A DNA stretch of 64,000 nt. Source: Candidatus Doudnabacteria bacterium (GTDB lineage: Bacteria > Patescibacteriota > Doudnabacteria > UBA920 > O2-02-FULL-48-8). Shown here piece by piece: positions 51,839-62,065 of the stretch. The position numbers were made by a program, and so were the translations under genes. Under the pieces are notes generated by a model. That model was not told where the DNA came from and made no database searches. It saw nothing but the letters and a program-made list of their open reading frames with translations. Every line of letters begins with the position of its first letter. Position 1 is the first letter of the stretch. The DNA lies in the NCBI GenBank assembly GCA_039931165.1, contig JBDTSL010000002.1:7134-71133 (forward strand). The letters run 5' to 3'.

Positions 51839-52066
51839 ATGAAAATCCCTCAAAACATTTTAATTTTTGCCCTGATCGCGGTTGATGTATTATTGATCGT
51901 CAGCATTCTTCTGCAGCAACGGGAAGGCGGCCTATCTACGGTTTTCGGCGGCGAAGGCAATGTCTACCGCTCCAAGCGCGGCATCGCCCTCGGCCTCCAC
52001 TACTTCACAGTAGTTTTGGCCGTGGTGTTTGTGGCCCTTAGCGTCCTGATCGTTTTCCTGAAATAA
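51839..52066 (+). CDS. secG: Preprotein translocase subunit SecG
   Basis: 75 aa, two TM helices; SecG-like QQREGGLSTVFGG. Confidence 0.75.
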   Translation: MKIPQNILIFALIAVDVLLIVSILLQQREGGLSTVFGGEGNVYRSKRGIALGLHYFTVVLAVVFVALSVLIVFLK

Positions 52067-52156
52067 ACCCCCTCACCAATCCTATCCAGTATGAATATAA
52101 CGGATAATTTCTTTAAATTTTTAAAAAACCAAATACTAGAACCAATTTATCCTTAT

Positions 52157-52172
52157 TGGTGCGGGGGTAAAT
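52157..52172. repeat. 14-mer motif copy 3
   Basis: ttggtgcgggggtaaa, 9 nt before the MITE-like element at 52181. Confidence 0.55.
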
Positions 52173-52180
52173 TTTCTCTG

Positions 52181-52321
52181 CCGGGTAGTAAAATTTAATT
52201 TGATTTAATTATTTAATTTAAACCTTTCTTGAAAATAATAGATTCCGACCTGACTAAATTGAAAAGTAATTATTCTATCTGTTTCGCTTCGCGAAACAGA
52301 TATTAAATTTCTACTACCCGG
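52181..52321. repeat. MITE-like element (family C) with 16-bp terminal inverted repeats ccgggtagtaaaattt / aaatttctactacccgg and an internal 11-bp-stem palindrome. It abuts the start codon of the peptide-binding protein gene.
   Basis: Terminal repeats at 52181-52196 and 52305-52321; internal atctgtttcgc-ttc-gcgaaacagat at 52277-52301. Confidence 0.55.
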
Positions 52322-54097
52322 ATGAGCAATCTTTGGTTGCAACTTAAAACTTTTTTTCAGAGCTTGCAGGTCGGGTTGATTTCGGTTCCCAATCTCAAGC
52401 GCCGGCAGATCCCCGACATCCTGGAGAATATTTACAAAAAAGAGTTTTATATCTTCACTGCCGCCCTCCTGATATTCATCTTCTCAGGCGGGTTTTTGCT
52501 TTTTCAGGCATTCCAGTTTCAGGGCTCCGGACCGCGTTCCGGAGGGGAACTGGTGGAAGGTTTGGTCGGCGAACCGCAATTCATCAATCCGGTGCTTTCC
52601 GAAACTTCGGGCGTGGACATGGATATATCGCGACTGGTTTACGGTCAGTTGTTGAAATTCGACGACCAGGAAAAATTGACGCCGGATCTGGCCGCTGCAT
52701 TGCCGCAAATCAGCCAAGATCAAAAAACTTATACTTTAAACCTAAAACCGAATCTAAAATGGCAGGACGGGCATGCACTGAATGCCGATGATATCCTGTT
52801 CACGATCCAGACGATCCAAAACGGCGACTATCAGTCCCCACTTCGTCCGAACTGGGCGCGGGTCAAAGTAGCGAAAGTGGATGACCTGACTCTGACATTC
52901 GTATTGCACGAAGTTTCCGCTTCTTTTGCTTCAAACTTTGCTTTGGGGATCCTGCCGAAACACGTTTGGGCAGGCATTTCCGCCCAAAACTTCCGCCTCA
53001 CCGACTATAACCTCAAACCTGTCGGCTCCGGGCCGTTTGCGGTTTCGGAGATCAAAAAAACTTCCGACGGCACGATCAAATCGGTCAGTTTGCGCGCCAA
53101 CGATAAGTACTACCAGGGCCGGCCCTACCTAAACCAAATCACTTTTAAATTCTATGACGGCTACGACAGCCTGATAGGCGCTTATCAGGCCAAAGACATT
53201 CAAAGTTTAGGTGTGGTGCCTTTTGACCAGAAAGCTTTTTTGGGAACTTCCGACAGGATGAAGGCGAACCGGATAAATCTGCCTCAATACCAGGCTGTTT
53301 TTTTCAACTTACCGAAAAATTCGACCCTCAACGAAAAAGCCGTGCGTCAGGCCTTATGGCTTGCTACCGACCGCGGTTCGATAATCAAAGACGTTTATTT
53401 AGGAAACGCGGCGCCCGCTTATGGACCGATCCTGGAAGGAAGTTTGGGATATAATCCGAGCATCGCCAAGTCTGCCCATACCAATCTTGAGGAAGCGGCC
53501 GGTATTCTGAATAAGGCTGGCTGGATCCTGGACCCGGCTACAAATATCAGGTACAAAAATTCCGCCAAAGGCGGATCCGCCTCCGGCGGAAAAAAAACGC
53601 TGGAGTTCAGTCTGGCCACCACAAGCAATCTGGTGATCAATGTCAAAGCCGCGCAGATCTTGCAAAACCAATGGGCCGCCATCGGCGTCAAGGTTAATTT
53701 AATTATTGTCAATTCATACGACCTGGAGTCCCAGTACATCCGGCCGAGAGCTTTTGACGCTTTATTGTTCTCAGAAAATGTGGGGGCCGATCCCGACCCG
53801 TTTCCTTTCTGGCATTCCAGCCAGTCCCGAGATCCGGGTTTGAATCTATCCGGCTTCACCAATGCCGAAGCGGATAAACTTCTGACCGAAGCCAGACAAA
53901 CTTCGGATCCGAGCATCCGGACCCGCGACTATCTGCGGTTCCAGGAGATCATCAATGACCAGCTGCCCGCCTTATTTCTGGTCCGCTCATTATATATTTA
54001 CAATGTGCCGAAAAATCTCCAGGGCATAAATTTAACCGACATCATCCATCCGTCGGAACGGTTCCTTGATGTGAATCGTTGGTATTTCCAAAATTAA
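52322..54097 (+). CDS. ABC transporter substrate-binding protein, family 5 (peptide/nickel)
   Basis: SBP_bac_5 similarity; N-terminal TM anchor. Carries the 36-bp in-frame insert NSAKGGSASGGK at 53558-53593. Confidence 0.8.
   Translation: MSNLWLQLKTFFQSLQVGLISVPNLKRRQIPDILENIYKKEFYIFTAALLIFIFSGGFLLFQAFQFQGSGPRSGGELVEGLVGEPQFINPVLSETSGVDMDISRLVYGQLLKFDDQEKLTPDLAAALPQISQDQKTYTLNLKPNLKWQDGHALNADDILFTIQTIQNGDYQSPLRPNWARVKVAKVDDLTLTFVLHEVSASFASNFALGILPKHVWAGISAQNFRLTDYNLKPVGSGPFAVSEIKKTSDGTIKSVSLRANDKYYQGRPYLNQITFKFYDGYDSLIGAYQAKDIQSLGVVPFDQKAFLGTSDRMKANRINLPQYQAVFFNLPKNSTLNEKAVRQALWLATDRGSIIKDVYLGNAAPAYGPILEGSLGYNPSIAKSAHTNLEEAAGILNKAGWILDPATNIRYKNSAKGGSASGGKKTLEFSLATTSNLVINVKAAQILQNQWAAIGVKVNLIIVNSYDLESQYIRPRAFDALLFSENVGADPDPFPFWHSSQSRDPGLNLSGFTNAEADKLLTEARQTSDPSIRTRDYLRFQEIINDQLPALFLVRSLYIYNVPKNLQGINLTDIIHPSERFLDVNRWYFQN
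53558..53593. repeat. 36-bp palindromic in-frame insertion, copy 1
   Basis: aattccgccaaaggcggatccgcctccggcggaaaa, identical to 60738-60773. Confidence 0.8.
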
Positions 54098-54181
54098 ATA
54101 TTTAGATTAAACTATAATGACCCAGACAAAAATAGGTCTATAGACCCGACAAACGGGTCGAGCACGACTTTTGTCCGACGA

Positions 54182-54267
54182 GGGCGAGTGGCGGAATGGC
54201 AGACGCACTGGCTTCAGGAGCCAGCGATCGCAAGATCATGGAGGTTCGACTCCTCTCTCGCCCACCA
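54182..54267 (+). tRNA. tRNA-Leu (anticodon CAG), long variable arm, CCA encoded
   Basis: Manual cloverleaf: acceptor GGGCGAG/CTCGCCC, anticodon stem CTGGC/GCCAG with loop TTCAGGA, T-arm GGAGG-TTCGACT-CCTCT. Confidence 0.8.
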
Positions 54268-54289
54268 GTATTTTACTGAATGGAATTTT

Positions 54290-55069
54290 ATGGAACAAGA
54301 AACTCAACAGCAACCAGAGCAATTTAATTCGCCTCCAGAAAATAAAAAGAAAATAATTATAGCTATTGGTGTGGTCGTTCTTGTTCTCCTTCTTGCCAGC
54401 GGATATTTTCTTTTTTCAAAACGTTCGGTAAAACAACCCGAAACTCAACAAATATCCCAGCCAGTAGATATTACCGGACAGAAAATGTATAGGAATCAAG
54501 AATATGGATTTGAGTTTCAATACCCGCAAAATTTTTTGGTTGGAAAATTTAAGCCTGAAGTTACTCCCTCTAGCAATGTTCCGCCAGATATACTAGAGAA
54601 ACAGCGCGACCTAAGTTTCAACAATGCAATAGTATTAGTTGAATTAGAACAAAAAGCTTTATTTTCAAAATCACCAAAAAATTTCTCGATAGACAGCATC
54701 CCAATTGGTGAAGTTCCGACTATCAGTATTAAGCCGATTACAACTTCGGCTGATTTTTACCGGAAAAATTTTATTGATAGTGATACAACATGGGGCGGTA
54801 AAAATATAAAAATTAATGAATATCAGGTTACTAAACTGCCTGGATATCCGGGACCATACGGAGACGCGGTATATTATTATTTACTCCCGATTTCAGACAA
54901 TTTAATCATTGAATTCATAGGCTTCAAACAAAAAATTCTTACAAACACCACAATGACCGAAAGTTATTACGACAAAATAATTGAAAATATCATTTCTACT
55001 TTCAAATTAACCCAAAAAGTTGTAGAAGGGCGCGTGATAACTCCATATTATTTAGGATTTAGAGTTTAG
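54290..55069 (+). CDS. Hypothetical membrane-anchored protein
   Basis: The ORF-track start at 54188 overlaps tRNA-Leu; the ATG at 54290 is preferred. Q/E-rich N-terminus, one TM helix. Confidence 0.5.
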   Translation: MEQETQQQPEQFNSPPENKKKIIIAIGVVVLVLLLASGYFLFSKRSVKQPETQQISQPVDITGQKMYRNQEYGFEFQYPQNFLVGKFKPEVTPSSNVPPDILEKQRDLSFNNAIVLVELEQKALFSKSPKNFSIDSIPIGEVPTISIKPITTSADFYRKNFIDSDTTWGGKNIKINEYQVTKLPGYPGPYGDAVYYYLLPISDNLIIEFIGFKQKILTNTTMTESYYDKIIENIISTFKLTQKVVEGRVITPYYLGFRV

Positions 55070-55092
55070 ATATTAGGATTTCGAATAGAGAG

Positions 55093-55121
55093 TTGACTAA
55101 ATCCACCGTTAGGTATATACT
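55093..55121 (+). promoter_or_regulatory. Sigma-70-like promoter TTGACT-N17-TATACT, with a roughly 170-nt structured leader before rnj
   Basis: ttgact 55093-98, tatact 55116-21. Confidence 0.5.
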
Positions 55122-55298
55122 ATATATACATTAGTTTCCTCTTATTTGAATCAAAAGTTAATAAAAGTCAGTCAATAAACGAAAGTTTGTTGTTTGTCTT
55201 GTGTTAATTGAGCAATTAGGCCTTGGGTTTAGCCCTGCCTGACGCTCGTAATATATCTTTAATGTCGTAAGCGACACAATTACGATTAGTAGGTTTTT

Positions 55299-57041
55299 AT
55301 GATGTTGCGCAAACAAGCAACCACCGCTGTAGCCACACGCCCACAAGAACGTGTTGCGGATAGCAAAGCCACTCTGAAAGTCATCCCATTGGGAGGTATC
55401 GAAGAGGTCGGCGAAAACATGACCGTGCTGGAGTACGGTGATGACATTCTTGTGATCGACATGGGACTCGGGTTTCCGGATGAGACCATGCCGGGGATTG
55501 ATTACATCATCCCGAACACCAAATATCTGGAAGACAATAAAAAAAGGATCCGCGGAGTGATCATCACTCATGGCCATTTGGACCATATCGGCGCCATCCC
55601 TTACATCATGCCAAAAATCGGCGACCCGCCGATCTATACCATGAAGTTGACCGGCGAGCTGATCAAAAAGCGCCTGGAAGAATTCCATCTGCTCGGAAGA
55701 AGCCAGATCCACGAACTGAACAAGGACGATGTTTTGACTTTGGGCAATTTTCGCATCCGATTTTTCCGGATCAACCATAACATCCCCGATGGCGTGGGGC
55801 TGGCGATAAATACGCCGGCAGGCCTTTTGGTTTATGCCACTGACTGGAAATTCGACCACACTCCTGTGGACGGCCGCCCCACGGAGTTCGACAAACTGGC
55901 CAAATTCGGCGGCGAGGGCGTGGCTCTGCTGATGTCCGATTCCACTAATGCGGAAAAGCCCGGCTATTCCATGTCCGAAAAAACACTCGGAGATACAATT
56001 GACCGGATCATGACCGAAGCCAAAGGGCGCGTGATTTTCGCGACCTTCTCCACTCTTATTTCCCGCGTCCAGCAAGTGATCGACGCCGCGTTCAAAAGCA
56101 ACCGTAAAATTGTCATCACCGGCAGGTCGCTTGTGAACAACGTGGAAATTTGTCTTGCAACCAATTATCTGAAAATGCCGGCCAAAGGCATGATCATAAA
56201 AATGGAACAGGCCCGCAAACTGCCCGACAACCAGGTCGTGATCCTGACCACCGGGTCGCAGGGCGAAGAAGCATCGGCCCTGGCCCGCATAGCCAGAAGC
56301 GAGCACAAGACCATTGAGATAAAAAAAGGCGACACCTGCGTAGTGTCCGCCTCTCCGATCCCAGGCAATGAACGCGCGGTGTCAGGTATTCTGTCCAACC
56401 TGGCGCGATTGGGCGCCAGAGTGCTGTACCAAAAGATCTTGGATATCCATACTTCCGGGCATGCCTACCAGGAAGATCTGAAGCTGATGATCTCCCTGAC
56501 CAAACCCAAAAACTTCATGCCGATTCACGGCGAGCACCACATGTTGGTGGCGCACGCGCAGCTGGCGAAGGATGTCGGAGTTCCGGAAGAAAATATTTTC
56601 ATTCTGGACAACGGCCAGATGCTGGAAATGGCGCCGACGGGATTGCATATCACGGAAGCCAAAATCCCGACCGGCTACGTTTATGTGGATGGTCTGGGAG
56701 TCGGCGATGTCGGCGAAGTTGTGCTCCGCGACCGGCAGGTCATGAGCAAGGATGGTATGTTTGTCATCATCATGACCATTGACCGCAAAACCAGCAAACT
56801 GACAAACCCGCCGGATATTATCTCGCGCGGCTTCATCTATATGAAAGGCTCTGAAGATCTTCTGAAAGAGGTTAAGCACGAAGTACGGAAGGTCGTGGAA
56901 AGCAAAGGCAAGGGCAATGGCACCATGCGCGAACCGAACTGGAGCTTTATCCGCTCCGAGGTCCGCGACCAGATCGGTGAGTTTCTGTTCCAACGGACGG
57001 AACGCAGACCCATGGTCTTGCCGGTAGTTATTGAAGTATAA
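55299..57041 (+). CDS. rnj: Ribonuclease J (metallo-beta-lactamase / beta-CASP)
   Basis: HGHLDH motif plus beta-CASP and C-terminal domain; 580 aa; intrinsic terminator at 57049-57080. Confidence 0.9.
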   Translation: MMLRKQATTAVATRPQERVADSKATLKVIPLGGIEEVGENMTVLEYGDDILVIDMGLGFPDETMPGIDYIIPNTKYLEDNKKRIRGVIITHGHLDHIGAIPYIMPKIGDPPIYTMKLTGELIKKRLEEFHLLGRSQIHELNKDDVLTLGNFRIRFFRINHNIPDGVGLAINTPAGLLVYATDWKFDHTPVDGRPTEFDKLAKFGGEGVALLMSDSTNAEKPGYSMSEKTLGDTIDRIMTEAKGRVIFATFSTLISRVQQVIDAAFKSNRKIVITGRSLVNNVEICLATNYLKMPAKGMIIKMEQARKLPDNQVVILTTGSQGEEASALARIARSEHKTIEIKKGDTCVVSASPIPGNERAVSGILSNLARLGARVLYQKILDIHTSGHAYQEDLKLMISLTKPKNFMPIHGEHHMLVAHAQLAKDVGVPEENIFILDNGQMLEMAPTGLHITEAKIPTGYVYVDGLGVGDVGEVVLRDRQVMSKDGMFVIIMTIDRKTSKLTNPPDIISRGFIYMKGSEDLLKEVKHEVRKVVESKGKGNGTMREPNWSFIRSEVRDQIGEFLFQRTERRPMVLPVVIEV

Positions 57042-57100
57042 AAAAATCCGCTCCGAAAGGGGCGGTTTTCTTTTTGCTTTAAAAGTCATATAATACAGTT

Positions 57101-58081
57101 ATGAAAGATATCATTGTTTCGGGAATCCAGCCCACGGGCGAATTGCATATCGGCAATTACTTGGGCTCGCTCAAAAACTTCGTCGAGCTCCAAGGCCAGG
57201 CCAAGTGCTATTTCTTTGTCGCGGACTTGCATTCATTGACCGAAGAGTTTCAGCCGGGAAAGGCCAAACGCGAGCAAATAAAAAATCTGGTACTGACATT
57301 TCTGGCCGCCGGACTTGATCCTGAGAAATGCACTATTTTCATCCAATCTCACGTCCCTGCCCATACTGAACTGGCCTGGATTTTCAATACCATCCTGCAC
57401 ATGGGCGAACTGGAACGGATGACCCAGTTCAAAGATAAATCCGCTCGGCAAGCCGCCAACATCAATGTCGGCCTGTTCGACTATCCCGTGCTTATGGCCG
57501 CGGATATTTTGCTTTACAAAGCGACACACGTGCCGGTCGGCCATGACCAGATCCAGCATCTGGAGCTGACCAATACCATCGCCCGTAAATTTAACCATAA
57601 ATTCGGTAATACTTTCAAAGAAATCAAACCGTATATTCAAAAACCCCTCCGCATCATGAGCCTTTCGGACCCTGACCGTAAAATGAGCAAATCCGAACCC
57701 GGTTCCTATATCAACATGTTCGACTCCCCCGAAATGATCCGCAAAAAATTGGCCAAAGCCGTAACTGCCACGAATGCGCCGGAAGGACAAATGCCCAAAG
57801 GGGTTCTGAACCTGTTTGACCTCCTGCTTCAATTCGGATCAAAACCGGTTCACCAGGATTTCACCAAACAATACCACTCGGGGTTGATCAAATACTCCGA
57901 ACTCAAGGAAGTACTGGCCCAATCCATTGCCGACTACTTCGCGCCCATGCGCTCCATGCGAAAAGAGCTGGAACAAAACAGCGATCAAATCGCAGAAATT
58001 TTGGCGGAAGGCGCCGCCGCGGCCCGCAAGGTTGCGGAAGCAACCTTATCGGAAGTGAAACAGAAAATAGGTTTGATATAA
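57101..58081 (+). CDS. trpS: Tryptophanyl-tRNA synthetase
   Basis: Class I HIGH (TGELHIGNY) and KMSKS motifs. Confidence 0.9.
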   Translation: MKDIIVSGIQPTGELHIGNYLGSLKNFVELQGQAKCYFFVADLHSLTEEFQPGKAKREQIKNLVLTFLAAGLDPEKCTIFIQSHVPAHTELAWIFNTILHMGELERMTQFKDKSARQAANINVGLFDYPVLMAADILLYKATHVPVGHDQIQHLELTNTIARKFNHKFGNTFKEIKPYIQKPLRIMSLSDPDRKMSKSEPGSYINMFDSPEMIRKKLAKAVTATNAPEGQMPKGVLNLFDLLLQFGSKPVHQDFTKQYHSGLIKYSELKEVLAQSIADYFAPMRSMRKELEQNSDQIAEILAEGAAAARKVAEATLSEVKQKIGLI

Positions 58082-58121
58082 ACACGCGCTTAACCGCGTG
58101 TTTCGTGTTTCAAGGAGGCCT

Positions 58122-58442
58122 ATGAAAATTTGGATCCAGTGCCGATCTCAAGCTGACGCGCAATTTTTCGAACAGGCGGTCATCGAGGGGTATTTTGGTG
58201 AACCGCTTGCCTGCCAGATCAGTCCGCTGAACCCGTGTTCGTTGGATGTGAATTTCCGCTCATTCCCGGTTGACGATGAAAAGATCCGGATCATATCCTT
58301 TCTCGTGGAGTGGGACTACTATGAAGAAGATCTCTCGTGCGAGGATCATCTGGCGGTGGTGGTGAAAACAAACATTCCGCAGCCGGCGGATCTGAGGCGT
58401 GGAGTTCTTCTGCGGATGCGCAGCCGCAAAGCATCGGGCTGA
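58122..58442 (+). CDS. Hypothetical protein
   Basis: RBS aaggagg before the ATG at 58122; T8 terminator region follows. Confidence 0.45.
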   Translation: MKIWIQCRSQADAQFFEQAVIEGYFGEPLACQISPLNPCSLDVNFRSFPVDDEKIRIISFLVEWDYYEEDLSCEDHLAVVVKTNIPQPADLRRGVLLRMRSRKASG

Positions 58443-58491
58443 AAACAAACGAGAGCGATCGATTTGGTGTCGACTGCCCTCTTTTTTTTGT

Positions 58492-59841
58492 CTAATTTTG
58501 AATTAATTCCAAAAGCGACTGAGTAGCTACTTTCAAGGTTTCCGGATCTCTGGCTTCCACATTCAACCGGATCAAAGACTGGGTGTTTGAAGAACGGATA
58601 TTGGCGCGCCAATCTGAATACTCCAAAGACAAACCGTCCGTGCGGTCAATTGCCGAGTCTTTAAATTCTTTTTCGATGCGCTCAAAAGTTTCGGCAATCT
58701 GGCTGTCCGATTGCAGGCTGGTATTAATCTCACCCGATACAAAATATTGCTCGAAGAAAGGCTCAAACAATTCGGAAACTTTTTTACCGGATCCGGATAC
58801 GATCTCTAAGATCAGCAAAAAAGGGATCAAGCCGTTATCGCAATAAAAAAAATCTTTGAAATAAAAATGCCCGCTCATTTCGCCACCGAATACGGCATCT
58901 TCTTTTCTCATCCGTTCCTTTATAAAACTATGCCCCGCTTTATTCATCAGGGGCACGCCACCAGCCTTCGTCACCGAATCAATGGTCGCCCAAGTTGCCC
59001 TCGGATCGAAGATAATTTTTGCGCCTGGGATTTTTTGTGCAAAATATCGGCCCAAAAAAGCCGTGAGATAGTAACCAGGAATAAACCGGCCGTTCTCGTC
59101 AAAAAGAAAAAAACGGTCGGCATCGGCATCCCAGGCGGCTCCCATATCCGCCTTGGAACTTTTTACCAATTCCGTTGTTTCCGTCCGATTCTGTTCTAAA
59201 AGCGGATCCGGTGCCCCTTTTGGAAAATGGCCGTCAGGCACTTCGTTCAGCGGTACCAATTCAACCGGCAAGTTAAGCTTAAACACATTCTGAACCGCCG
59301 GGCCGAACATGCCGTTGACCACTACTTTCAGAACTTTAAGTTTTTTGGAATCGATAAAGGATGCGCATTTCGCCAGATAATCCACCGCAACGTCTTTCGT
59401 TTGTAAATTACCCGAAGTTTCGGCTTTGAATTTATAATCCGCTAAAACCAATCGCTTCAGTTCCTCGATTCCCGTATCACCTGAGGTAGGGATCGATTTC
59501 TCGCGGACTATTTTTAAACCATTGTATTCGCCCGGATTGTGAGAAGCGGAGATCATCATCCCGCCATCATAACCATAATTCGCCACAGCGAAATAAAACA
59601 TATCGGTAGTCCCGATTCCGATATCGATCACGTTCACGCCATGGTCAACCAGTCCGTTTTTAACGGCTTCAAATAAAGCGGGTCCGGACAGCCTGACGTC
59701 CCGGCTCAAGACAACTGTTTTAGGATTTACAAATTTCGCATAAGCCTGCGCGATTTTATATACCGCTTCCTCGTTTATTTGAGAAGGATATACTCCGCGG
59801 ATGTCGTAAGCTTTAAAAATTGTCGGATCGATTTTTTCCAT
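58492..59841 (-). CDS. Phosphoglucomutase/phosphomannomutase family protein
   Basis: Active-site SASHNP plus PGM/PMM domains; 449 aa. Confidence 0.85.
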   Translation of the reverse strand: MEKIDPTIFKAYDIRGVYPSQINEEAVYKIAQAYAKFVNPKTVVLSRDVRLSGPALFEAVKNGLVDHGVNVIDIGIGTTDMFYFAVANYGYDGGMMISASHNPGEYNGLKIVREKSIPTSGDTGIEELKRLVLADYKFKAETSGNLQTKDVAVDYLAKCASFIDSKKLKVLKVVVNGMFGPAVQNVFKLNLPVELVPLNEVPDGHFPKGAPDPLLEQNRTETTELVKSSKADMGAAWDADADRFFLFDENGRFIPGYYLTAFLGRYFAQKIPGAKIIFDPRATWATIDSVTKAGGVPLMNKAGHSFIKERMRKEDAVFGGEMSGHFYFKDFFYCDNGLIPFLLILEIVSGSGKKVSELFEPFFEQYFVSGEINTSLQSDSQIAETFERIEKEFKDSAIDRTDGLSLEYSDWRANIRSSNTQSLIRLNVEARDPETLKVATQSLLELIQN

Positions 59842-59862
59842 ATTAATATATCAAAGGTTGGG

Positions 59863-60153
59863 TTAATGCCGCCGAGGCCCCCATTGCCAACGCGGCTTCT
59901 CGCCAGTCTTGTAACAAATTCGGAGAAGGGTTGCGGTTAAGAGAATAGCCGGCAGAATAAAGGTAAAAGCTACTTCGCGGGCGGACGATTGTTCGTCAAT
60001 TGTAAGGGCAAAAAAAACAACAGCCGCAATATAACTCAGGATAACTGCCCATCCTTGCCACCTCGCTGGAGTCCAGCCCCAACCATAAAGCTTGGCCTTG
60101 AACCAATAACCCTCTGGGTTATCCTTCAAATATTGTAGGTATTCTTTGATCAT
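59863..60153 (-). CDS. Small membrane protein, hypothetical
   Basis: 96 aa, Trp-rich, two TM helices. Confidence 0.4.
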   Translation of the reverse strand: MIKEYLQYLKDNPEGYWFKAKLYGWGWTPARWQGWAVILSYIAAVVFFALTIDEQSSAREVAFTFILPAILLTATLLRICYKTGEKPRWQWGPRRH

Positions 60154-60275
60154 AATTACCAGTCTTCATAAAATAAAAAATTTGGATCATATCTATCAAA
60201 GTCTATCAAAATTTATCAAAATTTGCTAGAATAATCAAAGCTTTTATTATTACTTTTAATTTTTTACCGAATACG

Positions 60276-61361
60276 ATGAGTTTTGCTGTAGGAATTGTCG
60301 GCCTGCCGAACGTCGGCAAGTCAACATTATTCAACGCTTTAACGAAGCAGGCTGCGGCCGCTTCGAATTTTCCGTTCACCACTATCGATCCGAACGTGGG
60401 CATCATCAGTGTGCCTGATGAAAGACTAGCAAAACTGGCCGCCTTGGAAAAATCGGAAAAAATCGTGCCAACCTCGATCGAATTCGTGGACATCGCGGGT
60501 CTGGTCAAGGGCGCGGCAGTTGGCGCTGGCCTGGGCAATAAATTTCTGTCTCACATCCGCGAAGTGGATGCCATTGTCCAGGTTGTAAGGTTTTTTGATA
60601 ACCCGGATATTATTCATGTTGAAGGAAAAGTGGACCCCGCGCACGATATTGAAGTGATTAACATTGAACTGATGCTGGCAGACCTGTCAGTCGTGAATAA
60701 GCGCCTTGAAAGTTTGGGCAAAGAAGTCAAAGGCGGCAATTCCGCCAAAGGCGGATCCGCCTCCGGCGGAAAAGACTCCGCTATTCTAAAAACGGCGTTG
60801 GAAAAGATCAAAACCGCGCTCGACGGAGGTCTTCTGGCTAAAACAGTATCACTGACAGAAGATGAAACTAAATTGGTGAAAGGTCTCAGCTTATTAACTA
60901 TGAAGCCAACTCTCTATGTGGCCAATATCGCCCTACAACCTACTCCCTACAGCCTACCACCTGATTTTCTGCCGATCGACATAAAGATAGAATCGGAATT
61001 GGCTGAACTTGCTGACGATGAACGCGTTCTGTACATGAAAGAGCTCGGGATCAATGAATCCGGTTTAGACCGGCTGGCGGGCGCTGCTTACAAACTTTTG
61101 AATTTAATCACTTTCATCACAGCCGGACCCAAAGAGAGCAAGGCCTGGACAATAGTCAACGGAACCAAAGCGCCCCAAGCCGCCGGAGTCATCCATACTG
61201 ACTTCGAAAAAGGCTTTATCCGCGCCGAGATCATCCAATGGGACAAACTTCTCGAAGCCGGCGGCTATGGGCCCGCTAGGGACAAAGGCTGGCTTCGGGT
61301 CGAGGGTAAGGAATACGTCATGGCTGACGGCGACGTCGCGCATTTCCGAGTAAACGCCTAA
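60276..61361 (+). CDS. ychF: Ribosome-binding ATPase YchF (Obg family)
   Basis: G1 GLPNVGKST, TGS C-terminus. Carries the 36-bp in-frame insert at 60738-60773. Confidence 0.9.
   Translation: MSFAVGIVGLPNVGKSTLFNALTKQAAAASNFPFTTIDPNVGIISVPDERLAKLAALEKSEKIVPTSIEFVDIAGLVKGAAVGAGLGNKFLSHIREVDAIVQVVRFFDNPDIIHVEGKVDPAHDIEVINIELMLADLSVVNKRLESLGKEVKGGNSAKGGSASGGKDSAILKTALEKIKTALDGGLLAKTVSLTEDETKLVKGLSLLTMKPTLYVANIALQPTPYSLPPDFLPIDIKIESELAELADDERVLYMKELGINESGLDRLAGAAYKLLNLITFITAGPKESKAWTIVNGTKAPQAAGVIHTDFEKGFIRAEIIQWDKLLEAGGYGPARDKGWLRVEGKEYVMADGDVAHFRVNA
60738..60773. repeat. 36-bp palindromic in-frame insertion, copy 2
   Basis: Identical 36-mer; begins exactly on a codon boundary and encodes NSAKGGSASGGK. 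Confidence 0.8.
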
Positions 61362-62065
61362 TGACAACTAAAACAAAACCAATTTACGCACTGGGTATCG
61401 TCGCTCATCCGGATGATGAGTCGTTTCTGTTTGCCGGAACTTCGCTGATGCTGGCCAGTGAAGGAAAAAAAGTGGGAGTAGTAAGTGCTACCAAAGGCGA
61501 AATGGGAGCTGACAGGCTGAACCGCAAGCTCTCCAAAAAACAAATGGCCGTAATTCGCCTAGCCGAAGGCAAAAAAGCCGGCAAGATCATCAAATTAACT
61601 TTTGTTGATTTCCTCAATCATCCGGATGGCGGTTTGGAACAAATAAATTTTAATAAATTTGTAAAAGAATTAGTAAAAAAAATTGAACAACACAGACCAA
61701 AAATTGTTTTAACTTTTGGCCGCGAAGGGATTTCTGGACACCGCGACCACATTGCCATCCACCGCGCCACAGTCGCTGCCGTCAAACAAGCCCGCCATAA
61801 ACCTGACAGTTTATTGCTGGCCAGTTTGCCAAGTTCCGCGATGCCAGCATTTAACAAACATCTGCTGACCAGAAAAGTCCATCATTCTCATTTCAAACCT
61901 CAACCTCTCAAAGGAGTTGCGGACAATAAACTGTTGAAAATCGATATCGGAAAATTTGCCAAGCAAAAACATAAAGCTTTAAAAGCGCACGAAAGCCAGT
62001 ACCTGCCGAGTTTTGTGTTGGATGTTTTTCAAAAATACGAATGTTTTGAAGTTATTATGCCCTGA
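61361..62065 (+). CDS. PIG-L / LmbE-family N-acetylglucosaminyl deacetylase
   Basis: HPDDE motif near the N-terminus. Confidence 0.75.
   Translation: MTTKTKPIYALGIVAHPDDESFLFAGTSLMLASEGKKVGVVSATKGEMGADRLNRKLSKKQMAVIRLAEGKKAGKIIKLTFVDFLNHPDGGLEQINFNKFVKELVKKIEQHRPKIVLTFGREGISGHRDHIAIHRATVAAVKQARHKPDSLLLASLPSSAMPAFNKHLLTRKVHHSHFKPQPLKGVADNKLLKIDIGKFAKQKHKALKAHESQYLPSFVLDVFQKYECFEVIMP

Follow-up and report, generated by a model that had tools for sequence, protein, structure and literature searches.

A stretch of 64,000 nucleotides from a Candidatus Doudnabacteria bacterium (contig JBDTSL010000002.1, positions 7,134 to 71,133 of the forward strand; hereafter the window, with positions counted from its first letter) carries a short palindromic DNA element twice, in each case in frame inside a protein-coding gene. 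The exact 36-mer AATTCCGCCAAAGGCGGATCCGCCTCCGGCGGAAAA occurs on the + strand at 53558-53593 and at 60738-60773, within the gene of a substrate-binding protein (SBP) and within ychF. The two host genes and the features in them are the following:

52322..54097, + strand: host gene 1, ABC-transporter peptide/nickel substrate-binding protein (PF00496, SBP_bac_5), 591 aa, identified by homology searches
53558..53593, + strand: 36-nt identical stretch in the SBP gene, consisting of the insert and native-type AAT and AAA flanks
53561..53590, + strand: insert copy in the SBP_bac_5 gene, 30 nt, encoding SAKGGSASGG (residues 414-423)
53561-53575, + strand: unit 1 of the SBP copy, TCCGCC-AAA-GGCGGA
53576-53590, + strand: unit 2 of the SBP copy, TCCGCC-TCC-GGCGGA
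60276..61361, + strand: host gene 2, ribosome-binding ATPase YchF, 361 aa, identified by homology searches
60738..60773, + strand: 36-nt identical stretch in ychF, consisting of the insert and AAT and AAA flanks
60741..60770, + strand: insert copy in ychF, identical 30 nt with the same two units, encoding SAKGGSASGG (residues 156-165)

The number of 36-mer matches expected by chance is 0 (100 shuffles). The two copies are spaced 7.2 kb apart and both lie inside genes, the sequence identity between them ends exactly at the borders of the 36-mer, and each copy starts on a codon boundary of its open reading frame (ORF). A preliminary description of this DNA had reported the identical 36-mer with codon-boundary starts in a peptide-binding protein and in YchF, which was confirmed by exact search and by the ORFs. 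It had also proposed a genome-wide search for the 36-mer. The 36-mer was searched for in the window, where the two exact copies but no further ones at up to 3 mismatches were found, and a 26-base core pattern was searched for in sequence collections, where at least 120 loci were found. Both host genes are essential-type genes which carry the same in-frame insert of two hairpins, read here as a harmless flexible loop.

Judged from the orthologous sequences, the true insert is 30 nt long, encodes 10 amino acids (SAKGGSASGG) and has no target-site duplication. The YchF orthologs have a length of 350-351 aa and lack exactly SAKGGSASGG. The insert is absent in 25 of the 26 aligned YchF proteins, and in H. 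influenzae YchF (1JAL) 10 residues are missing at the same place (KGGD|KE). The closest YchF ortholog with DNA (L121, 83% identical and syntenic) has GGC AAC|AAA GAA, the corresponding window sequence being GGC AAT [30 nt] AAA GAC; in the DNA alignment, exactly 30 nt are missing from the ortholog between AAY and AAA. The SBP orthologs are mostly 581 aa long with KN|KK at the insert site, and the DNA of one of them (L126) reads AAA AAT|AAA AAG, compared to AAA AAT [30 nt] AAA AAA in the window. Since the ortholog DNA has the native AAT (N) and AAA (K) codons, the insertion points lie after EVKGGN in YchF and after RYKN in the SBP. The preliminary description was thus right about the insertion itself, but had taken it for 36 nt or 12 aa after EVKGG and RYK. 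Some distant orthologs do have related residues at the same site, which would count against an insertion if they were native, but at the DNA level they go back to copies of this element that have decayed or consist of one half.

The 30-mer consists of two abutting tandem 15-nt units with the sequence TCCGCC-NNN-GGCGGA, each of them comprising a 6-bp stem and a 3-nt loop. A single unit folds with -8.9 kcal/mol as RNA, and the 36-mer folds with -13.2 kcal/mol as DNA (z -4.2) and with -21.2 kcal/mol as RNA. These fold energies support the earlier statement that the alternating CCGCC/GGCGG blocks can fold into hairpins. The pair of units can also refold to one long hairpin, which is the structure of minimum free energy.

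Species-representative genomes were scanned with the self-complementary 26-base pattern TTCCGCC N3 GGCGGATCCGCC N3 GGCGGAA, which matches the at least 120 loci mentioned above (contigs of one genome per species), with 124 copies in 105 assemblies among the matches listed. A looser pattern, in which the CCGCC/GGCGG blocks alone were fixed, was found in at least 120 metagenome contigs, with 125 copies among the matches listed. The abundances from these scans are lower bounds, and all evidence is comparative and derived from metagenome-assembled genomes (MAGs) and short loci. All listed carriers are MAGs, mostly labelled Patescibacteria; others are assigned to Omnitrophota, Kiritimatiellia, Lentisphaerae, Verrucomicrobiota, Planctomycetes, Auribacterota, Ignavibacteria, Bacteroidota/Chitinophagales and Desulfotomaculaceae (a Firmicute), all taxon labels being the depositors' own. 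Nanopore contigs of more than 1 Mb are among the carriers, related inserts also occur in Logan/JGI contigs, and the carriers outside the Candidate Phyla Radiation (CPR) are backed by host genes, e.g., by a sorting tail of the type IX secretion system (T9SS).

Among 2.9 million viral contigs one match was found, which suggests that phages are not an obvious reservoir of the element. In PLSDB (72,556 plasmid records) no match covered at least 80% of the 36-mer, and an Rfam search over positions 52000-62000 returned a tRNA and one sub-threshold chance match alone, with no family for the element. Most of the listed loci hold a single copy. A regular array of the CRISPR type with unique spacers was not seen, neither in the window with its two genic copies nor in the mostly single copies elsewhere. 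In a Kiritimatiellia MAG (JBAZEM, L091:3407-5385) several copies with the identical flanks TGTAGAGCCGGTTT...TACCGGCTATCCTA are spaced by ~450 bp and more; here the element forms part of a longer repeat unit.

Across the family the stems are conserved and the loops are variable, with the exception of a conserved A ending loop 1 and a conserved T starting loop 2. In the metagenome copies listed, a T is present on the 5′ side of CCGCC in 108 of 125 copies and an A on the 3′ side in 96 of 125. The closing pair, formed by the base 5′ of CCGCC and the base 3′ of GGCGG, is of the Watson-Crick type in 94% of the metagenome copies, compared to only 70% when the same closing bases are paired as in the long hairpin. 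The two closing bases of a unit covary, T·A being replaced by C·G in 10 copies for one unit and in 21 for the other (Fisher p 1e-13 and 5e-20), and none of 500 shuffles attained the observed number of double changes. The covariation of the closing pairs therefore supports the two-hairpin fold.

Beyond the unit's own T, the 5′ flank of the metagenome copies listed has T at 65%, 78%, and 50%, and beyond the unit's own A the 3′ flank has A at 61%, 74%, and 54%. Insertion occurs at T^A junctions in an A/T-rich context with the consensus tTT^AAa and without target duplication, and both window copies are located at an AAT^AAA junction. A minority of the copies is found in short intergenic tandem heptamer arrays (e.g., AATCCTG, ATGGTCA, GAAGATT) at the loci L014, L022, L054, L064, L106, L220, and L245; the copy in L014 lies near the 5′ end of uvrC, and in L022 a 15-nt tandem array adjoins the element. 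In five near-perfect heptamer arrays, the 7-nt periodicity is best restored by removal of exactly the 30-mer. A 5-bp direct repeat beside a 32-mer was considered as a target duplication and was rejected, because both the ortholog DNA and the heptamer periodicity give a 30-nt insert without duplication. The apparent 5-bp duplication had arisen because the T and the A that belong to the unit were counted with the flanks.

In the genome set, 50 of the 124 copies are located in long open frames, compared to 70% for random positions of the same loci, and in the metagenome set 73 of the 125 copies are located in long ORFs. Copies outside long ORFs account for 42-60% of the family, i.e., about half of it is non-coding. 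The ORF-embedded copies show a preferred reading phase, xxT TCC GCC NNN GGC GGA TCC GCC NNN GGC GGA Axx, encoding SAxGGSAxGG, which was found for 44 of the 50 in the genome set and replicated by 51 of the 73 in the metagenome set. Against a null of 1/3 this bias has a p of ~1e-14 (genomes) and 2e-10 (metagenomes). TT^AA-type sites in ORFs fall in about equal shares on the codon boundary and after codon position 2, and against the resulting null of ~0.5 the p is 2e-7 (genomes) and 4e-5 (metagenomes). The fixed core is free of stop codons in every frame, so the phase bias is not a detection bias. Its simplest explanation is selection on the encoded peptide.

The host genes of the family encode, amongst others, GlmS, LysRS, IleRS, LigA, UvrA, UvrC, a UvrD-like helicase, a Wzy_C ligase, and a protein with a T9SS tail. 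Wzy_C (Omnitrophota), the UvrD-like helicase (Kiritimatiellia) and the T9SS tail (Chitinophagales) were confirmed with Pfam. Homologs of the host proteins (GlmS, LysRS, and others) have gaps of 7-11 residues at the insert, with exactly 10 residues in five pairs. In two Bacteroidota MAGs (L007:~1238 and L093:~3926) a T9SS C-terminal sorting domain is interrupted by the element, in both cases at the motif NYPNPF|NP; in L007 a loop reads TGA, an in-frame stop. Furthermore, in the LigA of L086 and in the UvrD-like helicase of L059 the intact element is in each case accompanied by a second, decayed peptide resembling it (SAESGSASGG; FSATGGPAAGGN), which suggests repeated insertions in one gene.

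In the AlphaFold model of the SBP, the insert is placed between the beta-strands 410-413 and 424-434 (mean pLDDT, i.e., predicted local distance difference test, 73.5, with values below 50 at 416-422). In the YchF model, which is of low confidence (mean pLDDT 58), it is placed in the loop between the helices 121-152 and 164-183 of the coiled-coil domain, in agreement with the 1JAL alignment. According to the models the insert peptide forms a disordered loop, which caps a helical hairpin in YchF and a beta-hairpin in the SBP, and the structure prediction suggested by the preliminary description yields a loop position in both proteins.

In other Doudnabacteria-like lineages, half, decayed and intact copies were found at the same site of the SBP gene:

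L123, SBP site: slightly diverged single unit, TCCGCTAAGGGCGGA
L124, SBP site: intact single unit, native codon replaced
L125, SBP site: decayed double, after AAC, TCCGCCAAAGGTAGCACCGCCTCTGGCGGA
L128, SBP site: decayed single

The nearest relatives of each of these carriers are empty, and one 90%-identical protein reads AAA AGC AAA AAA. The AGC serine codon in the empty relative L127 was considered as a footprint of the element and was rejected, as it is AGC and not TCC. In the YchF homolog P0006, NS-KGGSASGGK is found at the position of the window's insert. Copies of the element can be reduced to one unit or degrade through point mutations, and an element-like peptide at any other site was not found in 240 homologs (120 SBP and 120 YchF). 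Within genomes, 15 of 34 copy pairs have the same loop variant, compared to 5.6% between genomes; some of the loop-sharing pairs lie in larger repeats. In another Doudnabacteria MAG all three copies have the AAA/TCC variant of the window.

Both copies in the window are probably members of a dispersed family of non-autonomous miniature elements, palindromic and either REPIN-like or GC-cluster-like, which spreads inside genomes and on which selection acts as a filter where the DNA is coding. This is in line with the leading idea of the preliminary description, namely a very small palindromic element, mobile or recombinogenic, that is located in frame. The idea is supported by the insert-free orthologs, by the wide occurrence (at least 120 loci in genomes and at least 120 contigs in metagenomes), and by the shared loop variants. 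The element would multiply within a genome by copy-and-paste or conversion from resident copies, and insertions that are out of phase or disrupt the protein structure would be removed by purifying selection. The conserved stems would act as the recognition structure for the mobilising activity. This activity might be provided in trans by a HUH Y1 transposase of the IS200/IS605 type or of the REP-associated tyrosine transposase (RAYT) type, which recognises hairpins in single-stranded DNA. A Y1 transposase is the leading candidate for the activity, albeit a doubtful one. Y1 transposases require two hairpins, do not duplicate their target, and excise precisely in a single-strand "peel and paste" process. 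Precise Y1 excision would explain the empty sites in the nearest relatives, and the two same-strand hairpins together with the missing duplication and the seamless empty sites fit the Y1 chemistry of IS200/IS605/RAYT. For REPINs, the less stable two-hairpin fold has been proposed as the form recognised by a RAYT dimer (PMC3116915).

Several observations weigh against the reading as a mobile family or restrict it. Clustering of the neighbouring genes gave Y1_Tnp (IS200/RAYT-like) as the most recurrent family with 5 of 121 loci, but this is no higher than for several housekeeping genes, the Y1_Tnp genes in the five loci are flanked by other hairpins than the element's, and no Y1_Tnp gene is present within the 64-kb window. 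The neighbourhood of Y1_Tnp was consequently rejected as linkage. A transposition event was not observed in the comparative MAG data, all hosts are MAGs without an experimental system, and the copy number per genome is apparently low in the sequence examined. The covariation from T·A to C·G may go back to one ancestral double change passed on by descent. The occupancy of the same site in several SBP and YchF lineages with empty nearest relatives is unlike random transposition, and could be due to an old insertion with repeated precise loss or to spread by homologous recombination. In addition, the AAT 5′ flank common to both window copies is atypical, as A is found there in 3% of the family, and it hints at homology-guided copying rather than classical transposition. 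The recurrence at the same site and the shared AAT flank argue for a homology-guided component, such as conversion, recombination between lineages or repeated precise loss.

Palindromes of their own were observed at some of the RAYT-like genes. The RAYT-like Y1_Tnp gene L090:6342-7220 encodes the peptide ILSGTVPDK twice, as in-frame copies of the palindrome TCGGGGACTGTCCCCGA, which is also present directly upstream of this gene. The RAYT-like genes in L111 and L071 are each flanked by their own distinct hairpins.

The closest alternative is that the copies are ancient insertions which no longer transpose actively or never did, and which were homogenised by gene conversion, moved between related lineages by homologous recombination and repeatedly lost by hairpin slippage. 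It would account for the restriction of element-derived residues to one site in each set of 120 homologs and for the presence of intact, half and decayed versions at that site beside empty nearest relatives. The origin of L123 and L124 from the same sample, and the 3 + 3 flank bases common to the window copies, which could serve as microhomology, point in the same direction. However, it leaves unexplained why the same 26-base core turns up in more than ten phyla at hundreds of sites that are unrelated to each other, some of them non-coding or within heptamer arrays, and why unrelated genes of one genome have a common loop variant. Some copying to new sites is needed even then, and we consider this explanation unlikely as a whole. 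The chances are smaller still for a nucleic-acid signal selected by the host, be it a protein-binding palindrome (parS-like) or an mRNA hairpin modulating translation or stability. Stems that are invariant across phyla with variable loops, the covariation backing the structure and the very stable RNA hairpin (-21 kcal/mol) would suit such a signal, but orthologs and nearest relatives manage without the element, its positions differ from genome to genome, the decay of copies is tolerated, and it is located in arbitrary genes and intergenic repeats. Moreover, no Rfam family matches it, and the layout of T-run and A-run forms no terminator on either strand.

The preliminary description had left room for an assembly or construct artefact, and a library artefact or contamination with a synthetic linker may be added, given that a BamHI site lies inside the element, its start resembles an EcoRI overhang, the sequence as a whole has the look of a linker, the peptide resembles an engineered GGS linker and all carriers are MAGs. 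This origin is excluded for practical purposes by the related inserts in independent assemblies, samples and technologies: the element is present across many laboratories, assemblers and platforms, including the long nanopore contigs, it has variable loops, subfamilies and decayed copies, and reading frames are preserved. Besides the missing plasmid match over at least 80% of the 36-mer in PLSDB, the only literature matches to its core are unrelated cloning primers. Just as hard to credit is an independent origin in the two proteins by selection for a flexible Gly/Ser loop. The linker-like peptide is indeed placed in loops by the structure models, but the two copies are identical in DNA including the synonymous positions. 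The preliminary description had argued that protein-level selection cannot explain identical DNA, and a pure protein-level explanation is excluded by the large non-coding share of the family and by conservation at the level of the DNA palindrome.

The mobile-family reading was also compared with known repeats. Rickettsia palindromic elements (RPE) are reportedly selfish in-frame palindromes in families of ~100-150 bp, restricted to Rickettsia. Like RPE and the QMITEs of Coxiella (PMC5896051), the element consists of palindromic DNA in frame in conserved protein genes at tolerated surface positions, as found here in the comparison with RPE. Unlike these, which have ~100-150 bp or more and occur in one genus, it has 30 bp in two 15-nt hairpins with an unrelated sequence and crosses phyla. 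Its hosts are Patescibacteria, Omnitrophota, and lineages of the Planctomycetes-Verrucomicrobia-Chlamydiae and Fibrobacteres-Chlorobi-Bacteroidetes groups. The small dispersed repeats (SDR) of Nostoc are mobile, 21-27 nt long and often located in tandem heptamer arrays, which resembles the element with its size of well under 100 nt and its copies inside such arrays. However, SDR are confined to cyanobacteria and are not known to occupy housekeeping genes systematically in frame, and the sequence of the element is unrelated to them. Repetitive extragenic palindromic (REP) sequences reportedly have a conserved 5′ tetranucleotide of the GTAG type beside the palindrome, whereas no GTAG is found at the element, the flanks of which are merely T-rich and A-rich.

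With the REP/REPIN-RAYT system (Bertels and Rainey, 2011; PMC3116915) the element shares a short G+C-rich palindrome forming a hairpin and a doublet unit with alternative long-hairpin and two-hairpin folds, both of which were found here. It is also non-autonomous with conserved stems, its singlets resemble remnants, and a Y1 mechanism is expected to leave no target duplication. In contrast to REPINs, which have doublet spacings of ~71-110 bp, it is 30 nt long with abutting hairpins; REPINs are overwhelmingly extragenic, while 50 of 124 and 73 of 125 copies of the element are in ORFs. REPINs reach tens to hundreds of copies, are specific for a species or genus and adjoin their own RAYT, whereas the core of the element spans many phyla and no cognate RAYT was found beside it in the window or in the loci examined. 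Two same-strand hairpins without target-site duplication were also found in common with miniature elements derived from IS200/IS605 (PATE-like, for palindrome-associated transposable element). Such elements insert 3′ of a fixed tetra- or pentanucleotide and have a matching TnpA in the genome; the 5′ flank of the present element is T-rich (65-78% T), though not fixed. A classical miniature inverted-repeat transposable element with terminal inverted repeats and target-site duplication has ~50-500 bp, unlike the 30-nt element without duplication. The GC42 clusters of yeast mitochondria (PMC4478555) are similar in having tens of nucleotides, a G+C-rich hairpin in A+T-rich surroundings, and changes mostly in the loops with constrained stems, but they are organellar and eukaryotic with duplicated AG target flanks, while the element is bacterial and has no duplication. 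Double-hairpin elements of Allomyces mitochondrial DNA (Paquin et al., 2000, cited in PMC4478555) appear, from that citation, to have a similar double-hairpin architecture.

A description of the element sequence, its units or its peptide was not found in the searchable literature, the coverage of which is incomplete, so that an earlier description is possible; the family is apparently undescribed so far. A more far-reaching view is that it represents the smallest mobile bacterial DNA yet, a 30-nt recognition structure alone, which crosses phyla among co-occurring uncultured bacteria, owes its movement to an activity specific for hairpins (be it a new clade of Y1/HUH enzymes or the ordinary enzymes of replication and repair) and seeds flexible loops in core proteins of genome-reduced bacteria. 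We regard this as a rather long shot. If the mobile-family reading holds, selfish palindromic DNA in protein-coding genes would no longer be a matter of the single genus Rickettsia but would cross phyla, with the CPR and other groundwater and sediment lineages at its centre. The 2 × 15 nt would then be a minimal substrate for an enzyme moving REP-like hairpins, which can be synthesised and directly tested, and the inserts would form a natural experiment on the tolerance of a 10-residue Gly/Ser loop in conserved proteins. The element will produce spurious indels in marker-gene alignments and phylogenies (YchF, aminoacyl-tRNA synthetases, GlmS, LigA, UvrA) and may mark gene flow between co-resident uncultured bacteria.

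Other YchF homologs (P0028, P0047, P0005, P0037, P0061) contain unrelated inserts at a second site in the alignment columns ~262-313, e.g., PLPKGEGN...GEGGRRPDEG and GRRPGEGE. They have the appearance of another G+C-rich palindromic repeat in translated form, and several repeat families seem to colonise CPR genes.

Within the window, a profile hidden Markov model built from the 124 copies and mismatch scans revealed no further copies save one near-unit. This single unit with one mismatch (58376-58390, TCCGCAGCCGGCGGA) is located in the small ORF 58098..58442, where it is read as IPQPAD; ~0.3 such matches are expected by chance, with which it is compatible. Finally, a tRNA gene was identified at 54182-54264 (Rfam, 54 bits). 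It is overlapped by the mechanically called ORF 54188..55069, so the 5′ part of this ORF is unlikely to be coding.

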